DNA of 64,000 nt, from assembly GCA_029856435.1 (NCBI GenBank), contig JAHQXB010000063.1:1-64000 (forward strand). The letters are read 5' to 3'. The notes below the pieces were generated by a model that was given only the letters and a program-made list of their open reading frames with translations, had not been told where the DNA came from and made no database searches. This document shows, in pieces, positions 17,437 to 61,138 of this stretch (the first letter of the stretch is position 1; every line of letters starts with the position of its first letter). The translations under genes were made by a program, and so were the position numbers. Origin of the DNA: Candidatus Jordarchaeia archaeon (lineage in GTDB: Archaea > Asgardarchaeota > Jordiarchaeia > Jordiarchaeales > Jordiarchaeaceae).

Positions 17437-18422
17437 TCACTCTTCGCCGAACAAAATTTTGGATAGTTCTTTTAGTTGTTCTATGCCCCGGATTTCTTTG
17501 TCGTAGAGGGGAACCTCTGTTATGTTAAAGTCGTCGTATAGTTCATGTATTTCTTTAAGGTTCTCTAACTGCATACTTCTACGTGCCCGACAAAAGGGAC
17601 AGTTAGGTATGTCTGGATAAACCATGTTAACGATTATGTGGTCGCAGGGGATTTCGTACTCGTTGAGAGCGGAGAGTAATCTTTCTGTCTCAAAAACAGC
17701 CATTGCTTCAGGTATCATAACAACTACGAAAGCTGTACTCTCCGGATTCGATAGTTCAGCCCGAGCCACATCAATGGTAGTCTTCAGTTTTTCCAAAACT
17801 TCCATACTGCGATCAACTTCACCGCCCTTGCCGATTAATTTTTTAAAGAGTCCCGCTAGTCGTCCAAAGTATTCCCTTATTTTTAGCATGTTAATAACCC
17901 AGCCGCTGAGTACATCTGGCAGCGATAAGAGCCTTAAGGTGTGTCCCGTTGGGGCAGTATCAAATATTACGAGGTCATACTCAGGATTTTCGATGTATTC
18001 AAGTACCTTAGCAAACGCTAAGGCCTCGTCTGCTCCTGGAGGAGTCATACCAGTTAAGCCCCCCATACTCTCCAGTAGTGATTGGGCCTGAGGCTCGGAA
18101 AAATCTCCTTGCTCCAGATTTTTCTTGTAATCCTCAAAGGCTTTATGAGGGTCAATCTCTAATCCGTAGAGATTTTTTACTCCCTTAATTTTCTTAATTT
18201 TTGGACCTATGTGTTGGTCAAAACTATCACTTAGGCTATGGGCAGGGTCTGTACTAATGATAAGGGTTTTGAGTCCATATTCCGCTGCCCAAATAGCTGC
18301 AGCAGCCGAGCAACTGGTCTTTCCTACTCCCCCTTTTGAGGGACTAGTTAAACATAACTAATCTTTCCTCCGAAGAGTAGGAATTTTACTTGCCTCTCTT
18401 TTAGTAGATCGGCTATTGTCAT
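17437..18422 (-). CDS. Get3/ArsA family ATPase, intron-containing (exons 18422-18365 and 18335-17437; 318 aa)
   Basis: Spliced MTIADLLKERQVKFLLFGGKGGVGKTSCSAA..STDPAHSLSD..PGADE..FDTAPTGHTLRLL..CPFC; AGGTGG upstream of ATG 18422. Confidence 0.92.
18336..18364 (-). other. 29-nt BHB intron in get3/arsA Walker A motif
   Basis: GAGG-AAA-[GATTAGTTA tgtt TAACTAGTC]-CCTC-AAA, flanked by exon helix TTCCTACTC/GAGTAGGAA. Confidence 0.92.
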
Positions 18423-18606
18423 TGCTTACTTCCACCTGTTTTTCAGTTATGATTATGATTGGTGACATATTTACACATTTATGCTTGAATTTAAGTTTTA
18501 TTCATTAGATTCTACCTGTTTTGAGAATTAATTTTTGACCTATTACCTTGAATCGGAGATTTACAATTTATAAAGGTTGAACTTATTTGAAATCCCTGTA
18601 TTTATC

Positions 18607-19260
18607 TTATTTTATCTTGACTCTTTTACCTGTGACCATATAGTAGATTCTTGCTGCCAAGTTACAGGAGTGGTCTGCTATTCTTTCTAGGTATCTTGCT
18701 ATGAATAGGAGGTAGGCGGCATCAGATATTCCGCTTGGCTTCTCTATTACTAGGGTGATTAGTTCTCTAAATATTTGTTCGAAGAGTCCGTCTACTAGGT
18801 CGTCGTCCTCTGAGAGTTTCATTAAATTATCGACTCTTCTTGCGATGAAGGCGTCCAAGGATTTCCTTATCATTCCCTGTGCGATTTCTGACATGCGGGG
18901 AATATCTATTAGTGGCTTGAAAAAGGGTTTTCCAGCTGTTTTTATGGCTATTTCTGCGATGTCTCCGGAATAGTCGCTTATTCGGTCTATGTCTGTTATG
19001 ATTTTTAAGCAGGTTACAATAAAGCGTAAGTCTTCTGCCATGGGTTGCTGAAGTGCTAATAGTTCCATGCAGATTCTCTCTATTTCAAATTCTAGGTCGT
19101 CAACCTTCTTTTCTATCTCTATAACCCTTTGGGCTTGTTCTACGTCTTGTTTTTTGAGAGCGTTTACAGATTCTCGAACCGTCACAATTGACAGCTCACC
19201 CATATCGACAACCATGTCTGCTAATTTTTTTAGTTGGTTCTGGTAACGTAGCCTCAACAT
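18607..19260 (-). CDS. phoU: Phosphate signalling protein PhoU
   Basis: LALQQPMAEDLRFI, DIDRISDY, DDDLVD, YLERIADH; follows pstB. Confidence 0.92.
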   Translation of the reverse strand: MLRLRYQNQLKKLADMVVDMGELSIVTVRESVNALKKQDVEQAQRVIEIEKKVDDLEFEIERICMELLALQQPMAEDLRFIVTCLKIITDIDRISDYSGDIAEIAIKTAGKPFFKPLIDIPRMSEIAQGMIRKSLDAFIARRVDNLMKLSEDDDLVDGLFEQIFRELITLVIEKPSGISDAAYLLFIARYLERIADHSCNLAARIYYMVTGKRVKIK

Positions 19261-19306
19261 TTTCTTTTCAGGTTTTAAAGTTTCTTCCTTCAATGCTATC
19301 CTTCCT

Positions 19307-20149
19307 TTAGCCGAACCTCCCCGTAATGTAATCCCTTGTGCGTTCTTCGCGGGGGTTTTCGAAAATTTTTTCGGTTTCATCATATTCTATAAGTTCGCCT
19401 AGATACATAAAGGCTGTGTATTGAGAAACTCGCGCGGCCTGCTGCATGTTGTGGGTTACTATAACGACCGTGATTTTTTCTTTGAGATCCCATATAAGGT
19501 CTTCGATTTTTGATGTGGCAATGGGGTCGAGTGCTGAGCACGGCTCATCCATTAAAAGAACTTCCGGATTTATAGATAGTGCCCTAGCGATGCAGAGTCT
19601 TTGCTGCTGACCGCCAGAGAGTTCGTATGCATTTACATTTAACCTGTCTTTAACCTCGTCCCATAGGGCAGCCATTTTTAAACTATCTTCCACAATTTTG
19701 TCTAATTCCTTACTATTGTTTACTCCGTGAATTCTGGGGCCATAGGCAACATTGTCATATATGGACATGGGGAAGGGATTAGGTTTTTGGAAAACCATTC
19801 CCACCTTTTCTCTGATAGCTACCACATCGGCGCTATAATCATAGATGTTTTCGCCGTCAAGAAGCACCTCTCCCTCAACCCTAGCCCCATCAAGATCAAC
19901 CAACCTATTGAATGATCTTATTAATGTGGTTTTACCACACCCTGAAGGGCCAATTATTGCGGTGACCTTATTTTTTAATATTTTTAGGTTTATGTTTTTT
20001 AGGACATGATTTTTACCAAACCATAGATTTAGGTCTTTAACCTCTATTTTAACGTTCCTTGTTCTAGTCCTTTTTTCTTTAACTACACTGTCCTCTCTAT
20101 TATTTAATGCCGATAATTTGTTTAACACAGATAACATCATTCTCACCAA
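19307..20149 (-). CDS. pstB: Phosphate ABC transporter ATPase
   Basis: [54 protein letters not shown]. Confidence 0.96.
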
Positions 20150-21051
20150 CCCTTCCTCCTTTTTAAACCTTTATTTCGAATATACATTGCAAAAATGACG
20201 AATAGGAGAACCAGCCCCACAAGCACAAGAGCTGTTCCAAACTCGTAGGGTTTATTGACTGCTGCAAAAGGACTTGTTGTCGCCTCATAGTACAGGTGAT
20301 ATGTCAAAGCCATAACCGGCTGAAAGACATTTGTGGGGTAAAGGCTGCTTTGGTAGAAGACGGCTGCCGCGAAAAGTATGGCGGCAGTCTCGCCGGCGAC
20401 CCGCCCAATCCCCAGTATTGTACCTGTGGAGATTCCCGGCGCTGCTGCGGGTAGAACGGTTTTGGTAATGGTTTCCCACTTTGTGGCCCCTAGAGCTAGG
20501 CTTGCCTCTCGAAAGCTTTTCGGTATGGTCTTCAAGGCTTCCTCTGTTGACTTAACTATTATGGGGAGAGCCATGAACCCTAACACAAGCCAGCCTGAGA
20601 GGAGAGAGACACCGAAGTCTAACTGTTTGCAGAAGAAGGCGAATGCAAAGAGACCGAACACTATCGAGGGAACACCCGCCAAGTTACTAATGGTCTGGAT
20701 TATGAAAGATTTCAGTCGACCCTCGTGCAGGTACTCATTAATGTAGATAGCTGAAAGAATTCCCAAGGGTACAGCTATACAGATAGCACCCGATACTAGA
20801 GCAAGAGTTCCAAATATCATGGGAAGTATCCCCCCATAAGAGAGAGACAAACCTAGTGGTGTGCCATAGAGCATCCTTGCTCCGGGTGTGCCAGTTATAA
20901 ACTCCCAGTTGATTACTTGTGCACCGTTAATTATAATTACGCCCATAATTAGGATGAACGAAGCTAAAATTAGGAGGGTGGGAATGCTGAAAAGTATCTC
21001 GCCGAGACCCACTCCCTTAGTAACAGCGGTTAACTCTTTTTCGACCTTCAC
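20143..21051 (-). CDS. pstA: Phosphate ABC transporter permease
   Basis: [31 protein letters not shown]. Confidence 0.93.
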
Positions 21052-47611: not shown

Positions 47612-48982
47612 ATGACACAAACGCAAAAAGGAGAAAAATTTGAAGTCAAAGACCTAAAACTAGCACCAAGCGGACGAGCAACAATTGAGTGGGCAGAATC
47701 AAGAATGCCCGTGCTCATGCAAATAAGAGAGAGGTTCCGAAAAGAAAAACCGCTTAAAAACACCATAGTAGGAGCATGCCTCCATGTAACAAAAGAAACA
47801 GCAGTTCTTGCAAAAACCCTGAAAGCTGGAGGTGCAGAAGTCTACCTCTGTGCCTCAAACCCCCTATCAACACAGGACCATGTAGCCGCCGCACTGGTAG
47901 AAGAAGGAATAAACACATTCGCCTGGAAAGGCATGGACTACGAAGGCTACTACCGAGCAATAGCCAACGTTATTAAGGGAGAACCGAACATCACACTAGA
48001 CGACGGCGCCGACCTAGTATCAACCTTAATCAAACTCAAAAGAGGAGAAACCGGCGAGGAAATCAAGGTAGTTAAGAAAATTCTTGGAAGCCGAACAGAC
48101 TGGGCGGACAAAGTATGGGCCGGAGCCGAGGAGACCACAACGGGCGTAATCCGCCTTAGAGCCATGGCAAAAGATAACGTGCTACTATACCCAATTATAG
48201 CTACAAATGATACCCCCACAAAATGGGAAACATAAACACCCCCCGTGTTTAAGCCCAAATTTGACAACCTGTGGGGAACTGGGCAAAGCACCATAGACGG
48301 CATACTGAGAGCAACAGCAGACCTTATCGCGGGCAAAATTTTTGTAGTCGCAGGGTATGGCCATTGCGGTAGAGGCGTAGCGCTAAGAGCTAAGGGGCTA
48401 GGAGCGAGAAGAGTCATCATATGCGAGATAAATCCACATCGAGCCTTAACAGCCGCCTTAGAGGGTATGGAAGTAATGCCCATGAGGGAAGCCGCAGAGG
48501 TGGGAGACATTTTCGTAACCGCCACAGGATGCAAGAACGTCATAAATGCAGAACATATGAAAAAGATGAAAAACGGAGCAGTGATGTGTAACACAGGTCA
48601 CTTTAATGTGGAAATAAATATACCTGACTTGGAGAAAATCAGCGTTAGCAAGAGAGAGATAAGACCACTAGTCGATGAGTACACACTGGAGGATGGAAGA
48701 AAAATCTACCTACTAGCCCAAGGCAGGCTTGTGAATCTAGCATGTGCTGAGGGACACCCAAGCGAAGTTATGGACATGAGCTTTTCTGATCAGGCTTTAG
48801 CTGTGGAGTGGATTGTTAAGAATAGGGATAAGCTGTCTGGGATGGGTAGTGTGGTTTTGGATATTCCTGAAGAGATTGATAGGACTGTTGCAGAATTGAA
48901 GTGTAAGGCTATGGGTCTTAGATTAGATGTTTTGACCCCTGAGCAGGAAGCTTATTTGTCGGGCTGGGCTGAAGGAACCTAG
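47612..48982 (+). CDS. ahcY: S-adenosylhomocysteine hydrolase, intron-containing (exons 47612-48229 and 48260-48982; 446 aa)
   Basis: [30 protein letters not shown], spliced [37 protein letters not shown]. Confidence 0.95.
48230..48259 (+). other. 30-nt BHB intron in ahcY (contains in-frame TAA)
   Basis: TGGG-AAA-[CATAAACAC ccccc GTGTTTAAG]-CCCA-AAT. Confidence 0.92.
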
Positions 48983-59988: not shown

Positions 59989-61138
59989 TTAGGATACTGG
60001 ACGCCAGATAATTCCTAGTTCATCCGCTGTTTTGTATGCTTCCTCCATTTCGTGGCTAGTAACCCTTCTACATATGTCTGCATATTCCTTCCTTCTTGGC
60101 ACCTCGTGTGTTGGGTGATACTGTTCCATTATGTTAACTAAAGCCTTGGGGCAATTTTTAGCCACCCATTCAAGAACCGGTTTGGTGCAACACTCAATGT
60201 GTCCCGGTAAAACTAGGTGCCTTATTATCATGCCAGATGTTCCTGGTTCCACAGTTTCATCATAGGCCATTTTATGATTTCTTGAAACAATTTCCCAGTA
60301 ATTAGAAACTTTACTCAACCTTTCTGCGCATTGATCATTCCCATATTTAAAGTCGGGGAGCCAGAAATCCATAACGTCTAATAAAAGCTTCATACATTCT
60401 TTGGAACAGTACATATTAGAATTCCATAGTTGTACAATGTTTGTTTTAGTTTCCCTTACGCCCTTTAAAATGTTGTAGGTGTTTGGAGTTGGTTCTCCAC
60501 CCACATAATTTATGTTTCTTGCACCTTCCCTCTTTAGATCTCTTGAGATTCGTGCAAGGCTCTCACCCGAAGTTTCTATACCGTTTTTTGGATTTGTGGA
60601 AATGTCATAGTTCTGACAAAACACGCATTTAAAAGTGCAACTGGAGAAGAAGAATGCACCGTAAGAGCCTTAACTCTTAAGCGTTTGTGCCTGAAGGAAC
60701 TAAAGGGGCCTCTTCTCCAGTATGTATGAATGCTGAGGATACATAAGACTCTCTGCCAAGTTTACAAAATCCTTTTTCACCCTCCAGTCTATTAGCCCCA
60801 CACCGTCTTTCACAGAAATGACACTGCGATAGAATCCTTCTTGCTAGTTCCACCTTAGCATCTAAATAAGAAATCTTCGGCGAATCAATGTTTCCCAGAT
60901 CCAGTTCACCTGCATCAATCCGCCTCAAGACACTCCTAAAAACACCACTTATTCTATCATGCTCATCCCAAAGCTTGCCCAGCTCCGCATCTAGCTCAAC
61001 ATCTACACCTACTTTTAAAGCTATCATAAACTTAGCATAAAGCCTATCATTGAATACCTCATAGTACCTCCAAAGCCTCTCACGAACTGTACCGTCATCC
61101 CAAACACGGTAAGCATCTGGGCGAATTAGCTTCCACAT
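59989..61138 (-). CDS. PflX-like radical SAM protein, intron-containing (exons 61138-60685 and 60653-59989; 372 aa)
   Basis: CHFCERRCGANR, spliced HTGEEAPLVPSGTIFFSSCTFKCVFCQNYDIS, VGGEPTP, PDFKYGND, RHLVLPGH. Confidence 0.92.
60654..60684 (-). other. 31-nt BHB intron in pflX-like gene
   Basis: GCAC-AAA-[CGCTTAAGAG ttaagg CTCTTACG]-GTGC-ATT. Confidence 0.92.

Follow-up and report, generated by a model that had tools for sequence, protein, structure and literature searches.

A probable 29-nucleotide bulge-helix-bulge intron in the Walker A motif of the get3 gene of an Asgard archaeon

The get3 gene of an Asgard archaeon of the Freyarchaeia, encoded on the minus strand of a 64,000-nucleotide (nt) stretch of contig JAHQXB010000063.1 (the window, in what follows), is broken by a 29-nt insert in its Walker A loop, between Gly19 and Lys20. 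This insert is very probably an archaeal bulge-helix-bulge (BHB) intron lying within coding sequence, where its removal by the splicing endonuclease EndA and the ligase RtcB would yield the intact Get3 ATPase. Judging from the sequence, it is almost certain that the enzymes of transfer RNA (tRNA) splicing must cut the get3 messenger RNA (mRNA) and join it again. The host genome is a metagenome-assembled genome (MAG) of 3.5 Mb in 181 contigs, AT-rich and 97.8% complete, and the interrupted gene is the only true TRC40/Get3/ArsA gene found in it.

The protein is readily recognized as a member of the ArsA/Get3 family of ATPases. Exon 2 alone matches the Pfam profile PF02374 (ArsA_ATPase) at 3.8e-92 over profile positions 9-304 of 305, and the NCBIfam model TIGR00345 (GET3_arsA_TRC40) with 319.6 bits, relative to a cut-off of 135, over profile positions 5-297 of 299. 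The nearest solved structures are Chlamydomonas ArsA1 and the archaeal Get3 proteins 3zq6 (E 1e-84) and 3ug6 (E 1e-82). The translated exons show the deviant Walker A motif GKGGVGKT, a DPAH switch I, a DTAPTGH switch II, and a CPFC sequence near the C-terminus; the CxxC motif of Get3 dimers is zinc-binding. Family membership and the similarity to 3zq6 and 3ug6 suggest that the encoded Get3 would serve in the targeting of tail-anchored proteins.

Read through the insert, the frame of exon 1 ends at a TAA codon (18350-18348) and is only 24 codons long, and the frame of exon 2, beginning KGGVGKTSCS, covers 299 amino acids (aa). After splicing the product is 318 aa, and the Walker A motif is whole only in that form. 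A list of open reading frames (ORFs) starting with ATG, GTG, or TTG offers a 209-aa ORF (17437..18066) and nothing longer, one in which the P-loop is absent and the N-terminal third of the protein is missing. A preliminary description of this DNA had proposed a 29-nt BHB intron in the Walker A loop of a Get3/ArsA gene, a frameshifting insert whose unspliced frame runs into TAA, and an ORF track blind to the N-terminal third, and each of these statements held when the locus was analysed, with FGG-KGGVGKT restored across the insert. Exon 1 itself matches the N-terminal ends of intron-less orthologues one residue to one, and the Shine-Dalgarno-like GGTGG that precedes its ATG is kept ahead of the start codon both in the intron-bearing alleles and in the same-genus orthologue that has no intron (genome G005).

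The minimum free energy (MFE) fold of an 81-nt stretch of the locus is a BHB of -29.1 kcal/mol (z = -4.51), and 0 of 200 shuffled sequences folded as well. The exon-exon helix, GAGG/CCUC pairing, AAA bulges, 9-bp intron stem, and UGUU loop that had been described beforehand are all present in this fold, and the exon helix, earlier given as 9 bp, extends to 12 bp. The inner stem contains one G-U pair, abuts the 5' bulge, and holds the in-frame TAA. As regards the features that mark a substrate of EndA, two 3-nt bulges lie on opposite strands with a 4-bp helix between them, and the flanking helices are present in a relaxed form. The endonuclease cuts after the second bulge nucleotide in cbf5 (PMC2738675), and the crystal structure of EndA with RNA places the cut at the same position (PMC12397907). 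Applying this rule at both bulges restores FGG-KGGVGKT and gives a 318-aa ORF that is collinear with intron-less orthologues. With AAA at both bulges, the intron limits 18364..18336 and 18365..18337 are equivalent.

How far this shape exceeds chance was gauged with a stringent descriptor (inner stem of at least 9 bp, outer helix of at least 9 bp, and A-rich bulges), with a first-order Markov simulated genome as the control. The get3 site was the sole match in the real 3.5-Mb genome, where it is the strongest motif of this kind, and the simulated genome gave 0. A blastn-short search of the genome with the intron as query found no second copy, and with a single copy there is no evidence of a repeated mobile element.

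The exact junction is fixed by comparison with 33 orthologous loci drawn from the genomes of relatives (40 searched) and from metagenomes. In 29 of the 33, with sources that extend from the genus itself to further Asgard families, the sequence FGGKGGVGKT is uninterrupted, and at all 29 the spliced sequence corresponds to the continuous one, as revealed by the alignment that the preliminary description had recommended. The intron-less set includes the complete same-genus genome G005 (83% identity) as well as alleles from metagenomes (82-84%), and no interruption is seen in database proteins that are 87-88% identical. An insert at the same site occurs in three sister species of the genus (G001, G003, and G004) and in a JGI contig identical to G004. 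A search of genome G002 found no match to get3. Stops within the get3 matches of two additional Asgard genomes proved to be natural stop codons, and hence not introns.

Among the four intron-bearing alleles, the insert measures 29 nt in three and 28 nt in one, through a 1-nt deletion in the loop, and it holds an in-frame stop in all four (4/4). The change from 29 to 28 nt alters the unspliced frame, and nothing short of excision of the insert would make it harmless. In the four-allele alignment, 96% of the pair cells are paired, a figure that drops to 42-59% in controls with the partners shifted against each other. Two inner-stem pairs have changed on both sides (G-C/A-U by way of an A.C intermediate, and C-G/U-A/U-G), and the exon helix shows two synonymous differences through which pairing is kept (U-A/U-G). 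At synonymous divergences (dS) of 0.20-0.35, the ratio of nonsynonymous to synonymous divergence (dN/dS) is 0.02-0.07 in both exons and across the four species, and the 957 nt of exon contain zero indels and zero stops, with the ATG and Shine-Dalgarno-like motif kept. These values indicate that the get3 exons are under strong purifying selection and that the gene is alive.

The machinery for such splicing is encoded in the genome, which contains two EndA genes, RtcB, and Archease. The alpha-like EndA subunit, which is 192 aa long and encoded at L001 1178-1756 (contig C104), has visible Tyr/His/Lys catalytic residues and matches the catalytic alpha subunit of Aeropyrum pernix (3p1z_B) end to end at 3.2e-45, with the Lys-containing loop region included. 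The beta-like subunit, which is 197 aa long and encoded at L002 1195-1788 (contig C64), has no such His; its matches are to beta-subunit models and to the structural, N-terminal half of two-unit enzymes. The (alpha-beta)2 EndA of Asgard archaea, with its L1 loop, is of the broad-specificity type (PMC5829648). In the proposed pathway, get3 would be transcribed as a single pre-mRNA, in which the Phe-Leu-Leu-Phe codons of exon 1 would pair with the Gly-Gly-Val-Gly-Lys codons of exon 2, and the GAGG at the end of exon 1 with the CCUC at the 3' end of the intron, leaving an AAA bulge at each end of a 4-bp helix. The two-subunit (alpha-beta)2 EndA would then cut both bulges 3' of their second nucleotide, RtcB and Archease would join the exons, and the 29-mer would probably be circularised. 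Only the spliced mRNA would specify an intact Walker A (FGG-KGGVGKT) and a 318-aa Get3, the unspliced form giving a 24-residue peptide. Cleavage and ligation are presumed to take place in vivo, and constitutively rather than under regulation. The earlier claim that expression of the ATPase would require splicing gains support from the junction, conservation in four species, selection on the exons, the lack of a start codon for exon 2, and the enzymes encoded.

Several observations nevertheless weigh against a spliced get3. All 12 public cluster proteins of the clade are truncated calls, and not one reaches the full length expected after splicing. With 58 nt between start codon and intron, folding could face competition from ribosomes engaged in translation. 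The BHB is relaxed toward the exons, with a 1x2 internal loop (G18371 versus A18334/G18333) between the 3' bulge and the outer helix. The covariation comes from only four related sequences and is not significant, in that 124 of 500 shuffles reach it; it can be regarded as supportive of the BHB structure, short of statistical decisiveness. Finally, a loose BHB descriptor (4-bp helix, 5-bp inner stem, and 5-bp outer helix) is at chance level, with 1059 matches in the real genome and 969 in the simulated one, and as the descriptor is not enriched in this AT-rich genome, shape alone is weak evidence. Filtering the loose matches for restoration of an ORF retained 35, compared with 41-45 for shifted-splice-site controls, and missed the true get3 site. 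With the loose census at chance and the filter having failed, the stringent comparison alone was used.

Table 1. Features of the get3 locus, listed 5' to 3' along the gene in window coordinates.
Feature	Position	Strand	Details	Basis
Shine-Dalgarno-like GGTGG	18432..18436	-	9 nt 5' of start codon	read from sequence
Exon 1	18365..18422	-	ATG 18422-18420, 19 codons MTIADLLKERQVKFLLFGG, plus first two bases of Lys20	
Outer exon-exon helix, 5' strand	18372..18383	-	12 nt, in exon 1	MFE fold
Central 4-bp helix, exonic strand	18367..18370	-	GAGG	invariant and always paired in four alleles
5' bulge	18364..18366	-	AAA; predicted cut 18365/18364 (after second bulge nucleotide)	MFE fold
Putative BHB intron	18336..18364	-	29 nt	fold and orthologue alignment
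Intron stem-loop	18342..18363	-	9-bp stem 18355-18363/18342-18350, UGUU loop 18351-18354	MFE fold
Central 4-bp helix, intronic strand	18338..18341	-	CCUC	fold; invariant in four alleles
3' bulge	18335..18337	-	AAA; predicted cut 18336/18335	MFE fold
Outer helix, 3' strand	18321..18332	-	12 nt, P-loop Gly-Gly-Val-Gly-Lys codons	MFE fold and alleles
Exon 2	17437..18335	-	last base of Lys20, then GGVGKT... to TGA 17437-17439	

Among other explanations, the one that fares best grants that splicing is real and makes it conditional, the intron serving as a switch that answers, for example, to EndA/RtcB activity, to ribosome competition, or to temperature. An intron in the catalytic P-loop, so close (58 nt) to the start and with an in-frame stop in all four alleles, would lend itself to such control, and rtcB itself has a BHB intron (described below), so that the supply of ligase could feed back on spliced mRNAs. 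Against this idea stand the absence of the intron from close relatives and its recent, clade-limited gain; moreover, the stem top and loop of the intron drift freely among the alleles, and no sensor is suggested by the sequence. A switch is considered unlikely and has no positive support; the likeliest view is that the intron survives as a tolerated insert that is removed constitutively, and not as a purpose-built device.

A second explanation is that the 29-nt insertion inactivated get3, with the hairpin incidental to it. A broken unspliced frame and public annotation as partial or truncated are in keeping with a pseudogene, yet a dN/dS of 0.02-0.07 at dS 0.2-0.35, seen in both exons and in four species, is not, and neither is the retention of the start codon and Shine-Dalgarno-like motif in what is the sole Get3 gene of the genome. 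The distribution of length changes is equally telling, with a 1-nt indel in the insert and zero in 957 nt of exons, and the pseudogene hypothesis is accordingly very improbable.

Ribosomes might alternatively traverse the insert, either through translational bypass of the phage T4 gene 60 type or through programmed frameshifting. The gap does have GGA codons at its two edges, and the stem-loop between these contains a stop codon. A hop from GGA to GGA would, however, delete Lys-Gly, or Lys alone, from a motif that reads FGGKGGVGKT in every orthologue, and the stop is five codons past the take-off site rather than adjacent to it. The conserved two-bulge geometry and exon-exon pairing would be superfluous for bypassing, and a gap of 29 or 28 nt is too large for a shift of +/-1. 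Such recoding is hardly to be credited.

It is similarly doubtful in the extreme that the gene simply produces a shorter protein from an internal start, be it the P-loop GTG of the public calls or the ATG at 18066. Public gene calls for the intron-bearing clade (P0003 and P0123-P0133; 17437-18326 in the window) begin at a GTG in the P-loop and run for 296 aa (MGKTSCS...), or are shorter, and it is this 296-aa ORF that gene callers pick in the sister genomes. In the present genome, the codon in question reads GTA; the start is therefore not a conserved one, and exon 2 has no start codon. A protein begun at the P-loop GTG would have a Walker A deprived of its glycine-rich half, one from the 209-aa ORF would have neither switch I nor any of the P-loop, and the conservation of exon 1 would be left unexplained. 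One NCBI record of the clade is labelled "partial". The public mis-annotation of get3 in this clade is systematic and caused by the intron; gene callers that ignore introns thus report too few intact genes in these lineages.

An assembly or sequencing artefact, for which the 181-contig MAG might give occasion, is next to inconceivable, as separate studies yielded four independent assemblies that contain the same insert, with its own substitutions, and a contig of a JGI metagenome has it too. A self-splicing group I or group II intron was also considered and is ruled out, given that such introns span hundreds of nucleotides and the insert 29, and that Rfam gave no match anywhere in the window at a threshold as loose as E <= 0.5; with ARAGORN and Rfam at that same threshold, neither a tRNA nor another RNA family was detected in the 64 kb.

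Turning to the origin of the BHB intron, the intron-bearing alleles form one clade in the protein tree (support 98/100), nested among intron-less Freyarchaeia, and gain in the ancestor of that clade is the parsimonious reading of such nesting. Sequence comparison thus points to a recent gain, confined to one species cluster of the genus. With close relatives that are intron-less, the gain can be dated to within the genus, and get3 offers a natural experiment on the entry of BHB introns into coding sequences. The site itself may have been predisposed to provide an outer helix, with the Phe-Leu-Leu-Phe codons of exon 1 rich in pyrimidines and the Gly-Gly-Val-Gly-Lys codons of exon 2 in purines. 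In the outer-helix register, 12 of 12 positions pair in the four intron-bearing alleles, versus 4-10 of 12 in the 29 intron-less orthologue loci, and synonymous positions appear to have been tuned, or held, to outer-helix pairing.

The ligase gene of this genome is interrupted as well. At L057:1547-1576 (contig C93 of the present genome, G000; minus strand, outside the window), the LPD-AHQGYG motif of rtcB is interrupted by a BHB-type insert of 30 nt that includes a TGA in frame. The insert shows an inner stem, a 4-bp helix, and two 3-nt bulges, and LPDAHQGYGFPIGGV is regained when the rule used for get3 is applied. It is found in 6 of 6 genomes of the genus, varying in sequence and length, and Jordarchaeales relatives do not have it. 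In G005 (L070), a complete Freyarchaeum genome, it has another length and is frameshifting, and the family match begins at profile position 20; by virtue of this difference in length, the same rtcB intron appears in-frame or frameshifting depending on the species. RtcB would be needed to ligate the very mRNA that encodes it.

Within the window, ahcY (48230-48259, plus strand) has a 30-nt in-frame insert with a stop in the conserved NDxxTK..FDN motif, and two stop-to-stop ORFs meet at 48235/48236. The MFE folds of this insert and of another at 60654-60684 are weaker than the get3 motif (z -0.04 to -0.97); a relaxed BHB-like shape is discernible in the former, and none is clear in the latter. 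Immediately 5' of get3 and on the same strand lie pstA, pstB, and phoU (18607-21051, minus). The gap between phoU and get3 is a 184-nt AT-rich spacer, and no functional link between pst/phoU and get3 is evident.

As for tRNA introns in the lineage, passages of one study report that 92-95% of the tRNA genes of Freyarchaeia bear introns, often at non-canonical sites (PMC11291895). ARAGORN found only 6 tRNAs in the whole 3.5-Mb genome, which is consistent with the published heavy interruption of these genes, and which leaves tRNA introns unusable as a local reference set. It may be that tRNA-type BHB introns are actively colonising the protein-coding genes of Freyarchaeia, with get3 a recent gain and older ones elsewhere, including rtcB, a proposal to which we grant about as much credence as we withhold. 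If true, many housekeeping proteins would depend on EndA/RtcB splicing of mRNA, in an intron-bearing mRNA world without a spliceosome. Even for get3 alone, an essential-looking ATPase of an Asgard archaeon would apparently not be makeable without BHB splicing, and together the get3 and rtcB introns bear on the tolerance of introns in the archaeal relatives of eukaryotes.

In the papers searched, BHB introns in archaeal mRNA are documented for two genes only, cbf5 and one with the intron in a Haloferax 5' untranslated region (UTR) (PMC10485636, PMC7714728, PMC2738675), and those in other archaeal protein genes are described as "predicted" only (PMC2738675). A 2023 review held that further mRNA BHB introns were probably awaiting discovery (PMC10485636). 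A search of the literature found no report of BHB introns in Asgard protein-coding genes or in get3. The kind of intron is already known, and get3 in an Asgard host would be a new instance of it.

The closest known counterpart is the cbf5 intron of Crenarchaeota, which occurs in Desulfurococcales and Sulfolobales (Watanabe 2002; Yoshinari 2006; Yokobori 2009, PMC2738675). Like that intron, the get3 insert is a short BHB intron in coding sequence at a catalytic motif, with a relaxed BHB and predicted cuts between the second and third bulge residues. Likewise, the host has an (alpha-beta)2 EndA, presence among relatives is patchy, with gain and loss, and gene callers mis-annotate the gene. The two differ in that the cbf5 intron interrupts a catalytic Asp codon in Desulfurococcales and Sulfolobales, whereas the get3 intron interrupts Walker A in Asgard Freyarchaeia and does not belong to the cbf5 intron lineage; its gain is also much younger and limited to one species cluster. 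Splicing of cbf5, by (alpha-beta)2 EndA and with ligation, was demonstrated by complementary DNA (cDNA) and in vitro cleavage, and that of get3 is predicted from sequence.

In the HVO_1309 intron of Haloferax volcanii (Schwarz 2020, PMC7714728), an mRNA is the substrate of the archaeal splicing endonuclease, as is predicted for get3. Unlike get3, the HVO_1309 intron is located in a 5' UTR of a euryarchaeon with an alpha2 EndA, and its removal is not needed for the reading frame. The tRNA introns of Freyarchaeia and Atabeyarchaeia (Valentin-Alvarado 2024, PMC11291895), as portrayed in the intron passages of that paper, resemble the get3 intron in lineage, in being short, in their unusual positions, and presumably in the enzymes that act on them; they reside in tRNA genes, and those passages treat tRNA introns only.

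A last point of comparison is provided by HAC1 and XBP1. In these transcripts, a short intron leaves the mRNA without a spliceosome, through cleavage by Ire1 and joining by tRNA ligase or RtcB. They differ from get3 in their nuclease, which is Ire1, in the use of stem-loops that are not BHBs, and in constituting a regulated stress switch. The role of RtcB in XBP1 splicing is mentioned in a passage of PMC8718801. As with HAC1 and XBP1, what is proposed for get3 is a short, spliceosome-independent mRNA intron whose flanking exons would be joined by a tRNA ligase.
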